DNA from: Promethearchaeota archaeon
GTDB taxonomy: Archaea > Asgardarchaeota > Lokiarchaeia > Sigyniarchaeales > SOKP01
NCBI GenBank assembly: GCA_030606485.1
Contig: JAUWGH010000001.1
Location: forward strand, 330,001-362,000
DNA length: 32,000 nucleotides
Reading direction: 5' to 3'
The notes beneath the pieces were generated by a model. It saw nothing but the letters and a program-made list of their open reading frames with translations. It was not told the origin of the DNA and made no database searches. Shown piece after piece: positions 3,633 to 31,611 of the stretch (position 1 is its first letter; each line of letters starts with the position of its first letter). Made by a program: the position numbers and the translations under genes.

Positions 3633-4541
3633 ATGTCTGATGATGTTAGATATCCAAGTGAAAAACCAGAACATCCATATTTTGATAGTTCCTTTTCAGG
3701 AATGCTTTTAGGAACCCTTGTTTCACGATTCTGTGGAGGTTGTGGATATGGTAGTATTGGACAATTATATACAAGAGTCTTTGAAGATGAAAAGTTAGAT
3801 CCTAAATTATATCCATTAGTTATTGGGATAGGGTGTTATAGTCAAATCTTTTTCTTAGTTCATAAAAATGCTCAAAAAATGCTAACACTTCATGGTAGAG
3901 CCCCAGCAGTCGCAACTGGAATGAAAATGGCAAACCCGAAAATGAAACCGATTATCTTCTCAGGAGATGGAGATTGTTTAGGAATAGGAGGGAACCACTT
4001 TATCCATTTATGTCGCAGAAACCTTGATTGCATACTCTTTATCTTTAATAATTCTATTTATGGAATGACCGGTGGTCAAGCAGCTCCGACAACTCTATAC
4101 GGAGCTATGAGCACAACTACCCCATATAAAATGTTTGAACCACGATCAGATGGTGTAGAACTTGCTTTAGCTGCGGGTGCAAGCTATGTAGCGCGCACAA
4201 CTGTTGCCCATCCTAGGACTCTAATGAAATACTTTAAAAAAGCATTAAAACACAAGGGGACTTCAGTAATTGAGGTAATAACTCCATGTGTTACGTATTT
4301 TGGGCGGAAAAATCTTGATAATCTGGGTTCTAAAGGAGAAAAAGGGGAAATTATGGATACTGGAGGGAAAATGTTTGAGTGGATTAAAAAAAATTCTATT
4401 CATATAAATCAAGCGAAATTCATGAGTAAAGAGGAGTTATTTAATAAATATATTATAGGAGAATTCCGCTATGACCCAAGCAAGTCTGAATATTCTGAAG
4501 AATATAAAAAAATTCAAAATATCGCAATGAAAGGTGACTAA
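3633..4541 (+). CDS. korB: 2-oxoacid:ferredoxin oxidoreductase beta subunit (TPP-binding, KorB-like)
   Basis: FCGGCG, GIGC, TLHGRA, TPP motif GDGD...NN, YGMTGGQAAPTT, EVITPCVTYF; starts immediately after the alpha stop codon. Confidence 0.9.
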   Translation: MSDDVRYPSEKPEHPYFDSSFSGMLLGTLVSRFCGGCGYGSIGQLYTRVFEDEKLDPKLYPLVIGIGCYSQIFFLVHKNAQKMLTLHGRAPAVATGMKMANPKMKPIIFSGDGDCLGIGGNHFIHLCRRNLDCILFIFNNSIYGMTGGQAAPTTLYGAMSTTTPYKMFEPRSDGVELALAAGASYVARTTVAHPRTLMKYFKKALKHKGTSVIEVITPCVTYFGRKNLDNLGSKGEKGEIMDTGGKMFEWIKKNSIHINQAKFMSKEELFNKYIIGEFRYDPSKSEYSEEYKKIQNIAMKGD

Positions 4542-4544
4542 AAA

Positions 4545-5144
4545 TTGAACCGATACGAAATTAGAATTGTCGGATATGGTGGGCAAGGTATAATTACTTT
4601 GAGTAAAATGATTGCATACGCAAGTGGCATCTGTGAAGAATTATTAGTAACTCAAACTGAAGCGTATGGGGCGCAAGCAAGAGGTGGAAGAAGCTGGGCT
4701 GAAGTTGTTATCGATTTAGATAGAGAATCCAAACAGATTGATTATCCTAAAGCGTTAAAACCTTATGATCTTCTTGTTATTCTTTCGGATGCTGCAACAA
4801 AAGAGGTTAAAAAGGAAGTAATTAAAAAAGAAGAAAATACAGGACTCCTCATTTGGGATTCATCCACCATATTAGGGAAATTTCGAGCAGCAAGTAAAAT
4901 GAAAAATCTTGGTTTACCAATCCAAAAAATGGCATTAGAAAAATTTGGAGACACCGTATACGGTAATACAATCTTATTTGGAATATTTACAGTTGTAACT
5001 AAGATCTTCTCCGAAGAATCTGCAATAGAAACTATAAAACAATTTGTTCCAAGTTCAACATTAGAAAAGAATATTGAAGCTTTTAAATTTGGAAAGCAAA
5101 AGGCTGAAGAGTTTTTAACTCAATTAAAGGAGGGAATGAGTTAA
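4545..5144 (+). CDS. 2-oxoacid:ferredoxin oxidoreductase gamma subunit
   Basis: EIRIVGYGGQGIIT, YGAQARGGRS, NTILFG, NIEAFKFG; TTG start with GGTGA upstream. Confidence 0.9.
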   Translation: MNRYEIRIVGYGGQGIITLSKMIAYASGICEELLVTQTEAYGAQARGGRSWAEVVIDLDRESKQIDYPKALKPYDLLVILSDAATKEVKKEVIKKEENTGLLIWDSSTILGKFRAASKMKNLGLPIQKMALEKFGDTVYGNTILFGIFTVVTKIFSEESAIETIKQFVPSSTLEKNIEAFKFGKQKAEEFLTQLKEGMS

Positions 5145-17751: not shown

Positions 17752-19203
17752 ATGGCTGAAGAATTCAACGAAGAAGAGAAGGAAAAAAAAATAGAGAAAG
17801 ACGTAGATCGCATTGATAAAGATCTATTACAAAAGGCTAAAAATAGTAGAGATCTTATCGATAAAAAATTAAGAACATTCGAAAATAGTATTGATATTGT
17901 CTCAAATGCGAGAAAAACCGACGTAGAGTCAGAAAAGGAAGAAGGTAAGAAGATAACTATTGAGAAAAGTGAAGAAATAAAAGAGTTAGAAAAAAGATTT
18001 GAAGTAGTTACTAAAAAAATAAATGATAAAGAAGAATATCTTATTGCTTTAGAAGAGAAGATTTCGGGATTGGAAGAAATATACAATCGAAAAATTGAAA
18101 GTTCGAATACCTTGAATGAAGAATTAGCAATAGTAATTGGAAATAAAGAAAAACTAGCAACTGAATACAATGACCTTCAGAATAGGATCATTGATCTCAA
18201 TAATGCTTATGAAGCCAGAAAGATTGATTTAACGGTACTCCAAGATAAAGTAAAAGAAAAATTAGCAAATCAAGATGAATTACGGAACCAAATTGCAAAA
18301 TTTAATCAAGTAATACAAGAAAATGAAGAAAATTTTCTTCAATTAAAAGAAGAATCTAAAACTTTAGATAATAGATTAATAAGTTTGAGAACAGAAAATG
18401 AAGGTTTAAGAGCGACTATTGATAAAAATAAAGAAGAGATTTCTAATGTAAATAATTTAATTGAAGCAAAAGAAAATGAAATAAAACTTTTGAATGGACA
18501 AATTGAGAAAAAAGAAGAGAGATTAAGTAATATTGAACTCAAATTTCAGGAGTATAATGAACAACTTCCTGAAATAGAAAGGAGAAAAGATGTTTATGAT
18601 CAAATTATTAGAAACTATATGATGCAAGTAGAAGAAAGGCAACAAAAAATATTGACTTTAGAAACAAAAATTATAGAATTAAATGAGTCAATAGATACTA
18701 TAAAAGAACAAATTTTAGGAAAAGAGAACCTCATAAGTTTAAATGAAAAAAGATTGAATGAATTAAAGGTAGAAATTGAAACAGCTATTGCTGAGCATAA
18801 TGAACGTGAAAATCTCTTAAAATCTATAACTGAAAAGTTAGAATATACAGAAAAAGAACATGAGAAATTAACTAAAGCAAAAGATACAATAGATAAAAGT
18901 ATAAATGAATCGAAAGAAATATTTCAACAGTTAAAAACCCAATTAGATGGTCAAGAAGAAGAAATTAGAGATAAAGAAAGCCGAATAAATAGATTGGAAA
19001 TATTATCTTTAATTTATAGGGCATCAAAATTTTTCGGTGGAATATTAATTGGAATGGGCATATTCTTTTTAATTATTGGATTCGGATATCTGCTCAATAT
19101 TTTCGATTTTGGAGAAGCAAACCCAATATTAATCATGCTCTTATCATTAATTGGAGCAGGTTTAATAATAGTTTCTGGTATATTCCATTTAGAAAAATCA
19201 TAA
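17752..19203 (+). CDS. Long coiled-coil protein with C-terminal two-helix membrane anchor
   Basis: About 400 aa of E/K/Q/N/L/I heptad-rich sequence nearly free of Pro/Gly, followed by two hydrophobic helices (FFGGILIGMGIFFLIIGFGYLL; ILIMLLSLIGAGLIIVSGIF). Confidence 0.75.
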   Translation: MAEEFNEEEKEKKIEKDVDRIDKDLLQKAKNSRDLIDKKLRTFENSIDIVSNARKTDVESEKEEGKKITIEKSEEIKELEKRFEVVTKKINDKEEYLIALEEKISGLEEIYNRKIESSNTLNEELAIVIGNKEKLATEYNDLQNRIIDLNNAYEARKIDLTVLQDKVKEKLANQDELRNQIAKFNQVIQENEENFLQLKEESKTLDNRLISLRTENEGLRATIDKNKEEISNVNNLIEAKENEIKLLNGQIEKKEERLSNIELKFQEYNEQLPEIERRKDVYDQIIRNYMMQVEERQQKILTLETKIIELNESIDTIKEQILGKENLISLNEKRLNELKVEIETAIAEHNERENLLKSITEKLEYTEKEHEKLTKAKDTIDKSINESKEIFQQLKTQLDGQEEEIRDKESRINRLEILSLIYRASKFFGGILIGMGIFFLIIGFGYLLNIFDFGEANPILIMLLSLIGAGLIIVSGIFHLEKS

Positions 19204-23501: not shown

Positions 23502-23702
23502 ATGAAAATAAAAAGAAATAAAAAGATAAAAAAGTTATTAAATTCTAATAAAAGTGACATATTTGGAGATAAAATAAAATTATGCCCTGCATGTAGTGCT
23601 ACTATTTTGGATAAAAATGCAATTTTATGTCCAAATTGTAAAACAAATCTTAATAATACAAAAACTAAATATAAAATAATTAAAAATAAATTGGAGGATT
23701 GA
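23502..23702 (+). CDS. Small basic zinc-ribbon protein
   Basis: CPAC...CPNC; stop overlaps the TTG of the next ORF (TTGA). Confidence 0.55.
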   Translation: MKIKRNKKIKKLLNSNKSDIFGDKIKLCPACSATILDKNAILCPNCKTNLNNTKTKYKIIKNKLED

Positions 23703-24187
23703 AAAAAAAAATGAAAGATGATGAACGTGGAATAATTGCCGTGCGAAGTAGTGTAATTGGCGCAATTATTGGGACACTTGTATTTATCGTATTAGCTGCA
23801 TTCTTGTTTGGTTGGGGTACATGGTGGGTATATATGATCATTGGATTTATTTGGATTGGAACAGTCTCTAATGTTCTTAGATATTACATGGTAGAAAGAG
23901 TTAATTGTCCAAGCTGTGGTTCACCTGCTAATAAATATGATAAGTTCTGTAAAATTTGTGGTCATAAATTTCTCAATATGTGTCCTAAATGCCAGAAACC
24001 AGTTACAATTGGAGCAAAATTTTGTGAAGAATGTGGAACTCAACTTGAACAACCTGAAAAAGTAGAACCACCTACTCCATCTGAAGAAGTAAAAGGAGCC
24101 ATAATTAATTTTTGTCCTGGATGTGGTGAGAAGGTGGAAAATCTTGGCGCAAAGCACTGTTCTTTTTGTGGAACAGCGTTAAAATAA
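23699..24187 (+). CDS. Two-TM membrane protein with three zinc ribbons
   Basis: Two hydrophobic helices, then CPSC/CKIC, CPKC/CEEC, a Pro-rich linker and CPGC/CSFC. Start is TTG 23699 or ATG 23711. Confidence 0.8.
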   Translation: MKKKMKDDERGIIAVRSSVIGAIIGTLVFIVLAAFLFGWGTWWVYMIIGFIWIGTVSNVLRYYMVERVNCPSCGSPANKYDKFCKICGHKFLNMCPKCQKPVTIGAKFCEECGTQLEQPEKVEPPTPSEEVKGAIINFCPGCGEKVENLGAKHCSFCGTALK

Positions 24188-24274: not shown

Positions 24275-24604
24275 ATGAAAAATTATGCGTATTCGCTAGC
24301 AAGTTCTGCTCTTGGAGCAATAACTGTAACATTAATATTTGGATTATTGGCTGAGTTTTTATTGGGATGGCAATGGTGGATCTATATGATTATTGCATTC
24401 TCTTGGATTGGCTTCGTAGGTGCAATATTACGATTTTTAATCCTTGAAGGAAAAAAATGTCCTCAATGTAATAGTAATGTTAGTAGAGATACAAAATTTT
24501 GCAAGAACTGTGGTTACCAATTTTATAAAGAATGTCCAAAATGTAGGAAAATGCTACGTTCTGGAGCGAGATTCTGTGATGAATGTGGAGCTCAAATAGA
24601 ATAA
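24275..24604 (+). CDS. Two-TM membrane protein with double zinc ribbon (tandem paralog of 23699-24187)
   Basis: Same layout: GW-WWIYMII, WIG, CPQC/CKNC, CPKC/CDEC. Confidence 0.8.
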   Translation: MKNYAYSLASSALGAITVTLIFGLLAEFLLGWQWWIYMIIAFSWIGFVGAILRFLILEGKKCPQCNSNVSRDTKFCKNCGYQFYKECPKCRKMLRSGARFCDECGAQIE

Positions 24605-25582: not shown

Positions 25583-25686
25583 GGGGATGTGGCCTAGCCC
25601 GGTTTGATTCTGAGTAGTTTCAGAACACGAGAAACGGCGCCAGCCTCCAGAGTTGGTGATCATGGGTTCAAATCCCATCATCCCCA
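25583..25686 (+). tRNA. tRNA-Trp(CCA) with a 30-nt D-loop intron (25604-25633, best fit position 20/21)
   Basis: Acceptor GGGGATG/CATCCCC+A, anticodon arm CCAGC-CTCCAGA-GTTGG, T arm ATGGG-TTCAAAT-CCCAT, D stem GCCT/CGGC. Removing 30 nt gives a 74-nt cloverleaf. Confidence 0.92.
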
Positions 25687-26183: not shown

Positions 26184-26467
26184 TCTTATACCTAGTAAGT
26201 ATAATAGTTTTTTTTACTAATATAACTGCTTTTTTTTAGAATTTTCTTCAGATTTTTATTTTTTTCACAAATAATTCTAATGTTTTTCAACTATACTCTC
26301 TTTAATTGCATTAGAGCGACTCAATAATATCATTCTTTTAATGAATTTATTAAATGTAGAATGATTTTCATTGAGTAAAAAATAAAATCCAAATCGTATC
26401 AATAGATTTTATAATCTTTAAAAGATTATTTTACTTATTACAGAGCAAATCACAATTTTCAAGCCCC

Positions 26468-27244
26468 ATGTTATTTAATTATATAATTGGACCAGCAGGA
26501 AGCGGAAAATCCACATTGGTTGCTCAGCTAAAAGATTACATCTCTATGAGAGATTCAGAAATAACTGTAATTGCAATTAATTTAGACCCAGGTGCGTTAG
26601 ATTTAAAGTTTAATGCAGATATTGATATAAGGGATTATATCACCTTAGATGAAGTTATGAGGAAGTATAATTTAGGTCCAAATGGAGGAATGATATTAGC
26701 TGCAGATTTAATGATAAATTATATAGAAGATCTCAAATATGAGATAAATCAATATCAACCTGATTGGGTTTTAATTGATACTCCAGGTCAGTTAGAATTA
26801 TTTGCTTTCAGGGAAGTGGGTCCAATTATCGCAAGTTCCTTAGGTTTCGGTGGTGTTCAGAGATCGACAACTTTTTTATTTGATTCATATATGGTAAAAC
26901 GACCGAATGGATTTATATCTACCCTGCTATTAGCTGCTTCAGTTCAATATCGATTTCTAAATATTCCACAAATTAACGCTCTTTCTAAAATCGATTTATT
27001 AGATGATGATTTAATTGATATGGTCCTCGAATGGAGCACAGACTTTCAAAAATTAAGTGAGGCTACCAATGAAAGGGAAAAAGGTTTAATACGTGAATTA
27101 TCTCTTTTAGTATCCGAAGTATTTTCTCAACTAGGCTCTACCTCTGAATTAATTCCAATCACAACGGTAAGAGAAGATGGTTTGGACATTTTATTTGGGA
27201 CCCTTCAACGCATTTTTGATTCGGATAAATCAGAGTTTTATTGA
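26468..27244 (+). CDS. GPN-loop GTPase
   Basis: G1 GPAGSGKST, INLDPG, DIDIRDYIT, GPN loop LGPNGG, G3 DTPGQLELF, G4 SKID. Confidence 0.93.
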   Translation: MLFNYIIGPAGSGKSTLVAQLKDYISMRDSEITVIAINLDPGALDLKFNADIDIRDYITLDEVMRKYNLGPNGGMILAADLMINYIEDLKYEINQYQPDWVLIDTPGQLELFAFREVGPIIASSLGFGGVQRSTTFLFDSYMVKRPNGFISTLLLAASVQYRFLNIPQINALSKIDLLDDDLIDMVLEWSTDFQKLSEATNEREKGLIRELSLLVSEVFSQLGSTSELIPITTVREDGLDILFGTLQRIFDSDKSEFY

Positions 27245-27381
27245 ATAAAAATAGTTTTAAATTTTAAAGATTTTTTTATTTATTAACTAGAGTTCATATT
27301 AAAGAAATATTAAAGCAATCTGAAATTAAATTTATTAATGAATACAATTCTTTATCAGAAAGTGAGAGATTTTTATTAGAC

Positions 27382-28506
27382 ATGAAGATAATTGGTCCTA
27401 TAGCTGGAAGCGGGTCGCGATTGCGTCCTTTCACGTTTAAAAAACCTAAAGCTTTTATTAAAGTTGCAGGTAAAACAGTTTTGGACCATATTTTAGGCAA
27501 ATTAAAGGATACATTCGATCAAAATACCGAATTAATATTAATCGTTGGTTATAAGAAAGAGCAAATAATTGATTATATAAGTAAAAATTACTCAAAGGAT
27601 TTCAAATTAACGTTTATAGAACAAATACCCAGAGGTTTTGATGGAGATGTACCATATTATTGGGGTCTCGGCGAAGCTATTTATCTTGCCAAGGAACAAT
27701 TCAATTTTCAAGAAGATGATTTGAACAAGAAAAGTATAAATGAAAAAAAAGATGGATGTTTGATTTTCTTAGGTGACATGGTTCTACTTGATGAGTACTC
27801 ATATATTTTATATCGATATTATGAATCAGATGTGGATGGAATAATAACCGTTATGAGAGTTCCAAAGGAAGAAGCTAGTTCTTATGGAATTGTGTCTGTT
27901 GATGATAATATGATCATCAAGAATTTAGTCGAGAAGCCTAAGGAATTTATCTCTGACCTAGCAATCGCAGGAATCTATGCATTTAGTAGAAAAACAACGA
28001 ATGCTTTATTTAACAACATAAAAAAATATTTGGACAACAAATCTGAAGATTCTGGTGAAATTTATATGACTCCAGCACTTCAAGATTTGATAGATCAAAA
28101 CTACAAAATCGCTGCAGTCGAATTGAAAAAAGGGATTTTGGATTTTGGGAGAACTACCGAACTTTTGAAAGGCAACCGCTATATATTAGAGCATATGGCT
28201 CAAATAAATGAAAAATCTTCAACACAAAATGTAAATTTCAAGTATAGTGTAATTAATACACCAGTAAATATTGAAGAAAACACTGAAATTACTCATTCTA
28301 TTATTGGGCCATATGTATCTATTGGTAAAAATTGTAAATTAAAGAAATGTATATTAAAAAATTGCATAATCGAAGATGGTGCATATCTCTCAAATATAAT
28401 TACAGAAAATTCAATTATTGGGAGTTATGTTAAAATTGACAATCTCTCTAAAGATAATTTGATGATTGGAGATAAATGCCAACTAGTTTTAAATAATGAC
28501 AAATAA
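27382..28506 (+). CDS. Sugar-phosphate nucleotidyltransferase (RmlA/GlmU-like) with C-terminal left-handed beta-helix
   Basis: IAGSGSRLRPFT..KPKAFIKVAGK, GLGEAI, FLGD, YGIV, LVEKP, AIAGIYAF, DFG; hexapeptide repeats (IIGPYVSIGKNCKL). Confidence 0.88.
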   Translation: MKIIGPIAGSGSRLRPFTFKKPKAFIKVAGKTVLDHILGKLKDTFDQNTELILIVGYKKEQIIDYISKNYSKDFKLTFIEQIPRGFDGDVPYYWGLGEAIYLAKEQFNFQEDDLNKKSINEKKDGCLIFLGDMVLLDEYSYILYRYYESDVDGIITVMRVPKEEASSYGIVSVDDNMIIKNLVEKPKEFISDLAIAGIYAFSRKTTNALFNNIKKYLDNKSEDSGEIYMTPALQDLIDQNYKIAAVELKKGILDFGRTTELLKGNRYILEHMAQINEKSSTQNVNFKYSVINTPVNIEENTEITHSIIGPYVSIGKNCKLKKCILKNCIIEDGAYLSNIITENSIIGSYVKIDNLSKDNLMIGDKCQLVLNNDK

Positions 28507-28625
28507 GTATATGCCAGAAATGAAATAAAATTTTAAATTAAATAAAAATAAAGATTAAAGCAAGAAGATTTATTGATTATTTATATAATTTTTATTTTTT
28601 ATAGAAAAAAGGTGACTCTTAACAA

Positions 28626-30008
28626 TTGGTTGGGAATTTTATTGCCTGGGATGAAAGTAAAAAACCACGCGGAAGAATTGATATTAACTACAAAACAATA
28701 AAACAACTCTTGGATTCTCAAGGTTTTGAATCATATCAATTTTCGGAATTTCCAATTATTCATGAATCTCTAAAACCTTATGATATTTTGGTGTTTGCTT
28801 GTCCTGATTTTGCAAAAATTACACCTCAGGAAATAAATGAGATTGAGAATTGGGTGAGAGAAGATGGTGGTGGATTATTATTATTAAGTCATGCTGGAGG
28901 TGATAAGGGTCGTCAAACAAACCTTTCCGCTCTAGCTGAACGGTTTGGAATTACATTTGAAAATGATCAAGTGCTTTCACCTAATAATTATGGTATGGAA
29001 AATTTACCAAAGGTTTCTACATTTACACCACCTCATCAAATCAATGAAGGAATTAATGAAATTTGCTATCGTGCAGGTTGTTCTCTTACGACAATTGGGG
29101 GTTCTATTCCAATTGCTATGAGTGATCCAGACGCGGATCCCTTCTCAGTTCCTTTGATAGTTGTATCAGAAGCTGATAATGGGTTAGTATGCGTAATTGG
29201 TAGTTATGAAATCTTTAGAGATGAAATTGGCTGTGGAATTGAAAATGAACAACATCAAAAACTCGCTCTAAATTTATTTAATTGGTTGATTTCTGCACAT
29301 CGATTGAAATTAAAGGAAAAAGGAATTTCTACAATACCATCCAAAAAACCTGGACTGGCATATGGTTCAAGCTTACATCCTGCATTTTCTGATGCTGATG
29401 AAAAAGTTGGTACTCAACCGTATTCACCAATTACTGTGAAATCAGAAATTAAAATCTCCTCAAAAAGTGACCTTATACAAACTCTTTATTCAGTATTAGA
29501 TGAATTAAATGCTTTAAGTGATGTTGTAAATAAATTGATAGATTCAGTAATCGGTTCAGAAGATGAAATTATTGAATTACAGGCAATCAAAGAAATGCAA
29601 GAAAAGATTCAGCAGCCACCACAGTTAGAAGAACCCCCAGATCTTGGAATAGATTTTGAGAAATTAAAAAAAGAAGTTGAAGCCGAAACCGCTGAAGAGG
29701 ACAAAGAACTTACAGATTTAACTGAATTACCCAAAAAGCCATCTACTAAAAAACCGTTACCTCCAAGACCGAAAGGGATGCCTCCTCAAAATAAGAAACA
29801 GTCTAAAGAAGAATTAGCTGCGGAATTAGAAGGATTAGAGGGTAAAGTAAAAACAGTTAATAATTTAATTACATTCCTGAAGAAAAAGAAAAGAAACGGA
29901 AAAATTAAACAAAATGATTACAATAAGCAAATGAAAAAATTAAAGTATGATTTAGAAAATGCTATCAATAAAATAGATGAGTTAAAAAAATTATTTAACA
30001 AAAAATAA
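28626..30008 (+). CDS. GIFT (GldG/IFT52)-like domain protein with Pro-rich linker and C-terminal coiled coil
   Basis: WDESKK, YDILVFACP, EINEIENWV..GGGLLLL, TNLSALAERFGITFENDQV, VIGSYEIFRD, LALNLFNWL; no signal peptide; TTG start with GGTGA upstream. Confidence 0.65.
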   Translation: MVGNFIAWDESKKPRGRIDINYKTIKQLLDSQGFESYQFSEFPIIHESLKPYDILVFACPDFAKITPQEINEIENWVREDGGGLLLLSHAGGDKGRQTNLSALAERFGITFENDQVLSPNNYGMENLPKVSTFTPPHQINEGINEICYRAGCSLTTIGGSIPIAMSDPDADPFSVPLIVVSEADNGLVCVIGSYEIFRDEIGCGIENEQHQKLALNLFNWLISAHRLKLKEKGISTIPSKKPGLAYGSSLHPAFSDADEKVGTQPYSPITVKSEIKISSKSDLIQTLYSVLDELNALSDVVNKLIDSVIGSEDEIIELQAIKEMQEKIQQPPQLEEPPDLGIDFEKLKKEVEAETAEEDKELTDLTELPKKPSTKKPLPPRPKGMPPQNKKQSKEELAAELEGLEGKVKTVNNLITFLKKKKRNGKIKQNDYNKQMKKLKYDLENAINKIDELKKLFNKK

Positions 30009-30030
30009 GCTTAATCAAGCATTTTATTTT

Positions 30031-31611
30031 TTATCCTTTTCTCTTTGCTTCAGTTAAAGCTTTTTCTGCTAATTTTGTAGCTTTATTTGCCTTTTCTTTT
30101 TGTTTTTTAAATTTATCTTTCCATATTTTTACTTCAGAATCTAATTCTTTTATTTTTTTTGTTAAAAGTGCTATTTCTTTAGCCGATTTTTGTATATCTT
30201 TTCCAGCAAAATATTTTTGAAAGAGAGATTCCGCTTCTACCAATTCACCTTCTGATTTGGCTTCTAATATTTTAAGTCTCTTCTTCTTTAAATCTTCAAT
30301 AGTTTCTTTAGAAAGAAAATCGAGAGGATTAAATCCTATGCCTCCATGTTCTGTTTTTCGTTTTCTAATTTTTAGAAATAAAGGTGCGATCTTAACGGCA
30401 TCACCACAAATTATACATTCACCTGGGTCTAATCTTTGAATTTCTTCTTTATATTCTGGACCTAAATCTTCAGCACTTGAAATAGTTATATCAACATCTC
30501 TTATATCAGTTAATTGATGTATTATCCATGTTCCTGCCTGACCTCTTATCGTAACATCTAATAGTTGGGGTTTTTGAGTAGATATAACGAGATTTGCACC
30601 AAATTTTCTTCCTTCTTGAGAAAATAGTTTTACAGTTTCTGATATGTCTGTTTTCTTTTTACCTGCAAAAAGATGAGCCTCATCTATGAAAAGATAAAAG
30701 GGTTGAATTTGTTTGGAGGTGCTCGCATTATATAATTTCATAAGAATATTATTGGCAATAACCTCTTGAAGTTCCAACGGTAAACCTCTAAAATTTATAA
30801 TTGTACATAAATTTGAAGCTACTAAATCAGTTGCATCTAAAGAAAAAATATATTTTATGTCCACATCCGCTCCCTCATTCAAATTTAAATCAGCAAATTC
30901 TATTATTTTTTCAACAAATTCACTAGGAGATATTTTATCCTTTTCTAATTCCTCAATTGGAATTTCCGCTTCGGAATCTGAAGGAATACTTGGTAATTTT
31001 TCAATTGGTTCTGAAGATTTACTTATATCCCAATATTCAAGTTCTGGCTCTTCATTAGGAATTTCTTCATCAGTTTCTGAAATTTCTCTAGAAATTTTTA
31101 AACTAGAATATTCACCATGTCGATCAAAAATGACTATAGGAATTCCTTTTTCTAGGAATTCCTCAATTAACACTCCCATCGTATACGATTTACCCGAACC
31201 AGATTTACCCGTAATAAAAATTCTACCAAAATTCTTTACTAATAAACGCACATCATATTTAGAATAACCAAGTAGAGTCCCAAAATGTATTGAATCTTCT
31301 TCGGGATTATCAATCCCAAAAGTTTCTATAATTTGCTCCCTTTTAGCAAGATAAACTTCACTTCCGATCTTAAATGGTCTTTTCGGCATATGACCAAGAA
31401 CTTTTATTGTTGCCATTAATCCTTGTTTATCATTCCAGATATCACTTATCTTAAATAAATAATAATCTTTCTCTTCATTACTATCAGAATCAGTATAAAT
31501 CACTAAATGATCGTTTCGCCCTAGATTTTTATCCACAATTAAAAAATTAACCGTGTGTGTTGTTGTTTTACCGATTAACTTTCCAGCAATTATATCTTCT
31601 TGTTTAGACAT
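30031..31611 (-). CDS. HerA-like/DUF87 ATPase
   Basis: Walker A ITGKSGSGKSYT, IVIFDRHGEY, Walker B LFIDEAH, EGRKFG, STQKPQLLD, PGECII; N-terminal beta-barrel-like segment, acidic insert and C-terminal coiled coil. Confidence 0.85.
   Translation of the reverse strand: MSKQEDIIAGKLIGKTTTHTVNFLIVDKNLGRNDHLVIYTDSDSNEEKDYYLFKISDIWNDKQGLMATIKVLGHMPKRPFKIGSEVYLAKREQIIETFGIDNPEEDSIHFGTLLGYSKYDVRLLVKNFGRIFITGKSGSGKSYTMGVLIEEFLEKGIPIVIFDRHGEYSSLKISREISETDEEIPNEEPELEYWDISKSSEPIEKLPSIPSDSEAEIPIEELEKDKISPSEFVEKIIEFADLNLNEGADVDIKYIFSLDATDLVASNLCTIINFRGLPLELQEVIANNILMKLYNASTSKQIQPFYLFIDEAHLFAGKKKTDISETVKLFSQEGRKFGANLVISTQKPQLLDVTIRGQAGTWIIHQLTDIRDVDITISSAEDLGPEYKEEIQRLDPGECIICGDAVKIAPLFLKIRKRKTEHGGIGFNPLDFLSKETIEDLKKKRLKILEAKSEGELVEAESLFQKYFAGKDIQKSAKEIALLTKKIKELDSEVKIWKDKFKKQKEKANKATKLAEKALTEAKRKG

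Follow-up and report, generated by a model that had tools for sequence, protein, structure and literature searches.

The window analysed here is the whole stretch of 32,000 nucleotides at positions 330,001 to 362,000 (forward strand) of contig JAUWGH010000001.1 (assembly GCA_030606485.1, Promethearchaeota archaeon). It is part of contig 10 of a 3.75 Mb genome that is assembled into 13 contigs and rated 100% complete. The nearest named relatives are Promethearchaeia and Promethearchaeota metagenome-assembled genomes (MAGs), that is, Lokiarchaeia-type Asgard archaea. The subject of this report is an open reading frame (ORF) at 28626..30008 on the + strand, which begins with TTG, runs over 460 open codons and codes for a protein whose N-terminal domain, of the GIFT type, resembles the head of the eukaryotic ciliary protein IFT52. 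The protein and its orthologues are referred to as family A. The gene is real and conserved, and its product is a soluble cytoplasmic protein. In the alignment the N-terminus agrees with those of the orthologues within 2 residues, and an AT-rich, TATA-like stretch read about 40 nt upstream could provide the gene with its own promoter. The gene and its product divide into the following parts.

28626..30008, + strand: whole gene, 460-aa soluble protein of GIFT head, Pro-rich linker and helical tail, family A (ORF, relatives)
28611..28615, + strand: Shine-Dalgarno-like GGTGA, 10 nt 5' of the TTG (sequence reading)
28626..29321, + strand: GIFT domain, aa 1-232, class I glutamine-amidotransferase-like alpha/beta fold (PF23355, HHalign, VIA-align, model)
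29322..29462, + strand: linker 1, aa 233-279, disordered by prediction, with varying sequence and length (model, alignment)
29463..29609, + strand: long acidic helix, conserved, aa 280-328, 49 residues (model, alignment)
29610..29804, + strand: linker 2, aa 329-393, 18% Pro, highly charged, mostly disordered (model, composition)
29718..29786, + strand: conserved short linear motif in linker 2, with a nearly invariant L378 (alignment consensus)
29805..30005, + strand: C-terminal basic helical hairpin, aa 394-460 (model, alignment)

An earlier note, written from the letters of the window, had described this product as a cytoplasmic GIFT-domain protein resembling IFT52. The motifs quoted there are all found, namely ESKK at aa 10, NYKTIKQLL at 21, the GGDKGR...FENDQV block at 91-116, YRAGCSL at 148, DPFSVPL at 171, VIGSYEIFRD at 190, NLFNWL at 216 and the Pro-rich stretches at 329 and 375. 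The protein also has neither signal peptide nor transmembrane helix, as the note had stated; its 19-residue windows peak at a Kyte-Doolittle value of 1.61, in a buried beta-strand.

The resemblance to IFT52 was borne out, well above chance level, by searches of Pfam, of PDB sequences and of PDB structures, all of which rank IFT52 first. The best Pfam match is PF23355 (IFT52_GIFT; 52.9 bits, cut-off 27.2, E 3.6e-14), and the significant PDB sequence matches are IFT52 chains only, with the single protein as well as with a 26-sequence family profile (48.7 bits, E 5.5e-12). Foldseek returns the N-domains of Chlamydomonas and mouse IFT52 at the top (E 8e-17 to 2e-12, TM 0.79-0.87). The best VIA-align superpositions are again with IFT52 (Z 25.7 for 5fmr_A, and 25.0), at a root-mean-square deviation of 2.1 Å over 213-215 residues, followed by OST48 (Z ~20), Salmonella STM1381/STM3548 (~18.5), ThuA-like proteins (~16) and true amidotransferases (~14). 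The gap in Z between these last and IFT52 speaks against an unrelated amidotransferase enzyme, which the earlier note had named as one of the outcomes that would overturn it. We also retrieved ~125 eukaryotic IFT52 sequences with a 74-residue IFT52 fragment (green algae, oomycetes, dinoflagellates, Vitrella and Euglena). A profile of their N-domains (~120 sequences) matches the GIFT protein with 82.8 bits (E 4e-25), and HHalign pairs IFT52 N-domains with family A at 99.6% probability (E 2e-24, 223 columns, 23% identity). The head and the IFT52 N-domain are truly homologous.

The fold and the PF23355 match above cut-off place the protein in the GIFT superfamily, with weaker matches to PF09822, PF14258 and ThuA. 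Compared with IFT52 itself (OSM-6/BLD1, the scaffold at the core of complex IFT-B1; PDB 5FMR, 5FMS and 8BD7 chain B), the GIFT heads are superposable with 21-22% identity in the superposition and have in common the block GG..L.L...GG(D/E)...(T/S)N...FG...ND.V. Both proteins are cytosolic, and in both a Pro-rich disordered region and a C-terminal helical module come after the head. True IFT52, however, scores 312 bits on PF23355, against 52.9 for the window protein. The second-best structural match, OST48/DDOST and its yeast counterpart Wbp1 (6S7T chain G, 6EZN chain G; Z 18-20), has a GIFT-type fold as well but is a luminal, membrane-anchored subunit of the oligosaccharyltransferase of N-glycosylation, with 12-19% identity and a Pfam family, OST48_N, that the window protein does not match. 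Proteins of the ThuA-like and STM3548/STM1381 types (1T0B, 2GK3, 3SOZ; Z 16-18.6) are likewise cytoplasmic with a class I glutamine-amidotransferase-like fold; they differ in being single-domain, at 14-18% identity, and the ThuA match in Pfam is marginal here (14.2 bits). The fourth domain of S1P is also among the structural matches of the head.

A role as a GldG-like accessory of an ATP-binding cassette (ABC) transporter or surface machine, as known for bacterial GIFT proteins, is very improbable. GldG/ABC_transp_aux (PF09822) and DUF4350 (PF14258) proteins belong to the same superfamily and show weak profile similarity (25.5 and 21.8 bits), but both scores fall under the curated cut-offs (34.7 for PF09822). 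As a rule these bacterial proteins are exported or attached to the membrane and have a link to ABC transporters, whereas the window protein is soluble, with no signal peptide, membrane helix or hydrophobic segment, and ABC transporter genes are absent from its conserved neighbourhood. In the trees described below, membrane-anchored GIFT proteins fall on other branches.

An AlphaFold2 model built from 47 family members (mean predicted local distance difference test, pLDDT, 75) was used to delimit the parts of the protein. The GIFT head (aa 1-232) is modelled mostly above pLDDT 85 and contains 58 invariant positions among 26 orthologues, for example in CPD, SHAGGD.GR, FENDQ, PPH, PFS and GSYE.FR. 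Disordered segments in the model cover aa 244-274 (linker 1, pLDDT <50), 329-342 and 357-389, with a short helix at aa 344-358 inside linker 2. In and next to the long helix, I277, K280, L283, L287 and I305 are nearly invariant. The hairpin consists of helices 394-423 and 429-459 (pLDDT 80-94) and is conserved across the family, with L404, K407 and L414 invariant. The Pro-rich linker of the earlier note is thus present; its coiled-coil tail is replaced in the model by the helix at 280-328 and the helical hairpin at 394-459. The linker-2 motif has the family consensus L-T-x-L-P-P-K-P, of which the window protein carries the version LPKKP...PLPPRP, and may represent a docking site.

For aa 236-460 there is no Pfam match above threshold, and an NCBIfam scan of the whole GIFT protein gave nothing meaningful. 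Searches of Pfam and of PDB with the hairpins of 26 family members yielded sub-threshold, generic coiled-coil matches alone (KxDL, CdvA-like, Vps23 core and designed helical repeats). A SHOCT-like reading of the hairpin was dropped, its sole hit (0.094) being in one Korarchaeota relative. Complex prediction for two copies of aa 276-460 gave a score of 0.02, which lies under the mark and is evidence neither for nor against self-association.

Previous work on IFT52 describes its N-domain as devoid of catalytic residues and as a protein-binding surface (PMC4818760, PMC9753473). Together with IFT88, the IFT52 head binds IFT57/38 via a patch that includes K130 and R204 (PMC4818760; PMC9753473), the two residues having been shown to mediate the contact between IFT-B1 and IFT-B2 (PMC4818760). 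In a MAFFT alignment at ~22% identity, K130 pairs with N126 of the window protein and R204 with V176, so that the basic patch is not conserved; the position of R204 is anchored by a flanking P..P motif and that of K130 is less certain. Two further differences concern insertions. One of ~30 residues in IFT52 is missing from all archaeal groups compared, and another of 3-4 residues after the FRD motif is present in family A and in the Thor-type and Korarchaeota groups but not in IFT52.

The tails diverge further. True IFT52 matches IFT52_central (PF23352, 125 bits) and Itf52_C (PF21178, 64 bits), whereas Pfam finds neither this central domain nor the IFT46-binding C-domain in the window protein. 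In IFT52 the central domain binds IFT88 and threads through IFT70; the Pro-rich linker of the window protein is merely analogous. HHalign of the two tails gives a probability of 0.2%. In the genome of the window, a search for IFT52_central found no match, Itf52_C gave two sub-threshold chance matches elsewhere alone, and PF12317 (IFT46_B_C) had no match at E <= 1; this search did not extend to IFT88, IFT70 and the other subunits. By these comparisons the tail is unrelated to the partner-binding regions of IFT52.

Family A is one of several families with such a head. The same genome codes for three further cytosolic GIFT paralogues, which score 54.1, 44.4 and 29.9 bits on PF23355. They are small proteins (G000 C6:254179-255099, - strand; C12:139017-140120, - strand; C1:423735-424544, + strand), one of which is more ThuA-like. 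Two giant GIFT ORFs of 1336 aa (C2:412732-416739) and 1629 aa (C1:177174-182060) also occur in this genome; their starts, the only part examined, are hydrophobic. Run against 1.8 billion cluster representatives, the head profile retrieved 1739 clusters at E <= 1e-3. The 150th cluster scores 84 bits against this profile, the IFT52 sequences a median of 52 bits, and the named members of neighbouring clusters are Thorarchaeota, Helarchaeota, Ranarchaeia, other Asgard MAGs and Korarchaeota. Several of these proteins are closer to IFT52 than the window protein is: on PF23355 a Thor-type relative reaches 100 bits and a Korarchaeota protein 77, against 52.9, and in HHalign against IFT52 the Thor-type group scores 212, Hel/Loki-B 197, Kor/Ran 187 and family A 166, the sixth place among eleven archaeal groups. 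An ESM-Atlas shape search found PF23355-positive clusters in Thermoplasmatota and Actinomycetota as well. To judge from these profile scores, a match to IFT52_GIFT is generic for prokaryotic cytosolic GIFT proteins. The other cytosolic archaeal members (e.g. ThorAB25_04800 and proteins of Helarchaeota, Ranarchaeia and Korarchaeota, all hypothetical and undescribed) have the same head, no signal peptide, an FD-x-(S/T)-H-x-x-R-G start and the CPD and HP motifs; they differ in their tails and gene neighbourhoods, and the Thor-type is closer to IFT52 than family A. Family A sits within a larger, mostly Asgard clade of cytosolic archaeal GIFT proteins with lineage-specific tails.

Within the order of the window, family A is near-universal and kept at full length. 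All 41 genomes sampled from this order contain a match, 38 of them at orthologue level (E <= 1e-56), and 525 database relatives align at full length. In the phylum as a whole, a match at E <= 1e-40 occurs in 107 of 201 genomes. Full-length matches are limited to the taxonomic families f1 and f2 of the window's order; other Asgard families give head-only matches to proteins of 390-510 aa with other tails. The confinement of full-length orthologues to one order is a new observation. A contig search confirmed the gene in 146 species genomes, and almost all of the best 80 carry the label Promethearchaeota or uncultured archaeon. One record titled Candidatus Nanopelagicaceae bacterium (L063) contains a family member in a typical Lokiarchaeial neighbourhood; the contig is binned as an actinobacterium, most likely in error.

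The descent of IFT52 was examined with trees of 116 GIFT domains (238 columns, LG+C20+F+G4), a sample without bona fide bacterial GldG, DUF4350 and OST48 outgroups and without metazoan IFT52. IFT52 is monophyletic on a long branch (2.2-2.5 changes per site), the attachment of which is unstable across trees. A quick tree puts it beside a membrane-anchored protein and a careful tree beside a group of ~525-aa proteins (support 84/72). Family A falls within a 53-row clade of cytosolic archaeal proteins (support 93/99). With IFT52 constrained to this whole clade, the log-likelihood (lnL) is 7.65 units above that of the free search (approximately unbiased, AU, test: p-AU 0.666). In this best-scoring tree IFT52 stands in the Thor-type/Ranarchaeia subclade beside one long-branched row, and family A stands in the other subclade. 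When IFT52 is constrained with family A, the lnL drops by 16.0 units, a grouping that the AU test does not reject (p-AU 0.289); neither AU test rejects any topology, and the position of IFT52 in the best-scoring tree is not statistically secure. No tree put IFT52 next to family A, and the post-FRD insertion, which family A and the Thor-type and Korarchaeota groups have in common and IFT52 lacks, agrees with the best-scoring tree. It is therefore possible, and slightly favoured, that the origin of IFT52 lies inside this cytosolic Asgard GIFT clade or next to it. The stronger claim, that the IFT52 head was inherited vertically from this clade, including family A and its Thor-type cousins, we hold as a tentative and rather doubtful proposal.

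The earlier note had gone further and proposed a candidate archaeal proto-IFT52 scaffold, to be judged by whether the family is sister to eukaryotic IFT52. The homology of the head stood up; specific descent from this family did not, as the sister position was never recovered, even if the AU test leaves room for it. In its direct form this proposal makes family A the specific sister or ancestor of IFT52, already an extended scaffold whose Pro-rich region threads into partners of the tetratricopeptide repeat (TPR) type, and we consider it improbable. It draws on the first rank of IFT52 in the Pfam, PDB sequence and PDB structure searches, on the analogous order of GIFT head, Pro-rich region and C-terminal helical module, and on the AU result. 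Against these stand the trees, the higher scores of the Thor-type, Hel/Loki-B and Korarchaeota groups, the post-FRD insertion, the non-homologous tails with the IFT52 central and C-terminal domains unmatched, the missing IFT46 match in the genome and the lack of conservation at K130 and R204. The window protein is a paralogous cousin of the IFT52 head and not a demonstrated orthologue or ancestor.

We then turned to the surroundings of the gene, where the following features are of interest.

26468..27244, + strand: GPN-loop GTPase, first gene of a co-directional trio (Pfam ATP_bind_1, 195.8 bits)
27382..28506, + strand: sugar-1-phosphate nucleotidyltransferase with a C-terminal left-handed beta-helix, the constant upstream neighbour (Pfam NTP_transferase, 89.8 bits)
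25583-25686, + strand: tRNA gene, 104 nt, presumably intron-bearing (Rfam RF00005, 52.8 bits; missed by ARAGORN)
30031-31611, - strand: HerA/DUF87-type P-loop ATPase, 526 aa, with a coiled-coil C-terminus, inserted after the GIFT gene

The nucleotidyltransferase has an intact G-x-G-x-R-L-x-P signature, a below-cut-off NCBIfam match of the rmlA_long type, and mannose-1-phosphate and glucose-1-phosphate nucleotidyltransferases as its PDB relatives; the GPN gene matches NCBIfam GTPase PRK13768 with 252 bits, also below cut-off. Gene order was compared in the best 80 loci of the 146 species genomes and in the window. The nucleotidyltransferase stands directly 5' of the GIFT gene on the same strand in all 76 loci with enough flank, and it is itself preceded, in the window's family, by a GPN-loop GTPase gene in 71 of 73 loci; other neighbours are retained in 62-84% of loci. 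In family f2 the pair of nucleotidyltransferase and GIFT gene recurs in all five loci and the GPN gene is absent. In one genus of this family a 384-aa Rag/Gtr-like GTPase lies between the two (L106 4989-6143, genome G038; Gtr1_RagA 84 bits, Arf 61 bits). A GTPase gene of the GPN or Rag type is therefore found near the GIFT gene in both families, the GPN gene not directly adjoining it. Two genomes of family f4 have no nucleotidyltransferase neighbour. An Asgard-wide link in gene order was considered and rejected, as the Thor-type, Korarchaeota and other relatives have DNA ligase, PolB/HIT and NDK neighbours.

The trio is intact in the window genome despite changes on both sides. The tRNA gene, upstream of the GPN gene, marks the break in synteny with other Lokiarchaeia, beyond which the upstream flank is replaced. 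Downstream, the insertion of the HerA/DUF87 gene separates the GIFT gene from conserved HMGL-like, AsnC and TrmB genes and is restricted to the window's genus (3 of 80 other loci). Two conserved proteins without Pfam match are encoded co-directionally 5' of the GPN gene in most Lokiarchaeia (in L083, 4819-5799, 326 aa, and 4262-4663, 133 aa, + strand), with counterparts in 51 and 47 loci, respectively. In the window genome tblastn did not find the 326-aa gene, and the 133-aa gene is located on a different contig. The spacers of 138 and 120 nt within the trio and the TATA-like element suggest separate promoters, so that the association is to be taken as a lead and not as an operon. With this reservation, the conserved proximity to genes for a nucleotide-sugar enzyme and a GPN-loop GTPase is new, and it suggests, from gene order only, a link in partner or pathway that offers a testable lead to the role of the protein.

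This neighbourhood bears on the question whether the head could be an enzyme, or a binder of a sugar or nucleotide-sugar that works with the upstream nucleotidyltransferase, the tail only tethering or oligomerising it. The constancy of the nucleotidyltransferase, in the 76 loci and in the five of the second family, would suit such a function, as would the membership of OST48 in the N-glycosylation machinery. The fold is common to ThuA-like proteins, amidotransferases and accessory domains of glycosidases. Within the head, the polar residues H89, D93, R96, E112, D114, Q115, E125, N126, H137, R149, E195 and R198 are invariant to an unusual degree. By secondary-structure position, a nearly invariant Ser88-His89, and no Cys, occupies the elbow where amidotransferases carry their nucleophile. 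Sugar binding was moreover the original proposal for GIFT domains (Beatson and Ponting 2004, as cited in PMC4818760). Set against this, at least one orthologue and one paralogue have Asn in place of the elbow Ser, and Pfam matches no family with a Cys-His-Glu triad, nor any catalytic amidotransferase family. Gene order alone is weak evidence, and purified IFT52, which has no catalytic residues, bound no sugars (PMC4818760). On balance we regard an enzymatic or ligand-binding function as unlikely, if less so than direct descent of IFT52 from family A.

We somewhat favour the view that the window protein is a non-enzymatic, soluble adaptor or scaffold with a protein-binding GIFT head, related to the IFT52 head as a cousin and not as a demonstrated ancestor. 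Through its polar and very highly conserved surface, the head would bind another protein, much as the IFT52 head contacts IFT88 and IFT57/38, and the flexible Pro-rich linkers would present the conserved LxxLPPKP docking motif. The long helix and the basic C-terminal hairpin may mediate self-association or contact a second partner. The partner or pathway would involve the adjacent nucleotidyltransferase and, in the window's family, the GPN-loop GTPase. Several points weigh against this adaptor model. Partner binding by the GIFT protein is conjectural. The invariant polar residues fit an active site or small-molecule pocket equally well, and Ser-His at the nucleophile elbow points the same way. 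Because of the intergenic gaps and the TATA-like element, gene order may not mean co-function, and relatives in other lineages have the quite different neighbours named above. Finally, the AU test leaves a sister relation of IFT52 and family A standing.

The β-propeller and TPR subunits of intraflagellar transport (IFT) have been traced to protocoatomer-like proteins; where the IFT52 backbone came from is less clear. The IFT52 head has been linked to bacterial GldG-type proteins since 2004, and in the literature searched we found no paper linking IFT52 with Asgard archaea. A large, Asgard-dominated cytosolic family with the same head and a similar order of parts thus provides a concrete archaeal candidate lineage for the origin of IFT52. 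If the IFT52 head was indeed inherited from Asgard archaea, these soluble proteins of head, linker and helix would be extant kin of the ancestor that an IFT core subunit had before cilia arose, and their partners could reveal what IFT52 did at that stage. For the window gene itself the outcome is sobering, since it represents one of several families, is not the closest to IFT52 and has no partner regions of the IFT type. Lokiarchaeia-type species are in culture, which makes the protein amenable to pull-down.

DNA of the GIFT gene is present in cold-seep and marine-sediment metagenomes. Among three RNA-labelled runs, one contains two short contigs that are probably DNA and another contains none. 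In a size-fractionated hydrothermal-vent metatranscriptome, three short contigs of very high depth (171-828) fall on 29388-29643 alone within 26400-30100. They may stem from a piece of mRNA, from a small RNA or from DNA carried over, and are no demonstration of transcription, an operon or transcript ends for the GIFT gene.

Two further observations concern other genes of the window. A 483-aa coiled-coil protein (17752-19203, + strand) with a weak match to the crescentin rod is encoded in none of the 80 loci. Tandem double-zinc-ribbon proteins at 23699-24187 and 24275-24604 (+ strand) recur in the window's genus only.

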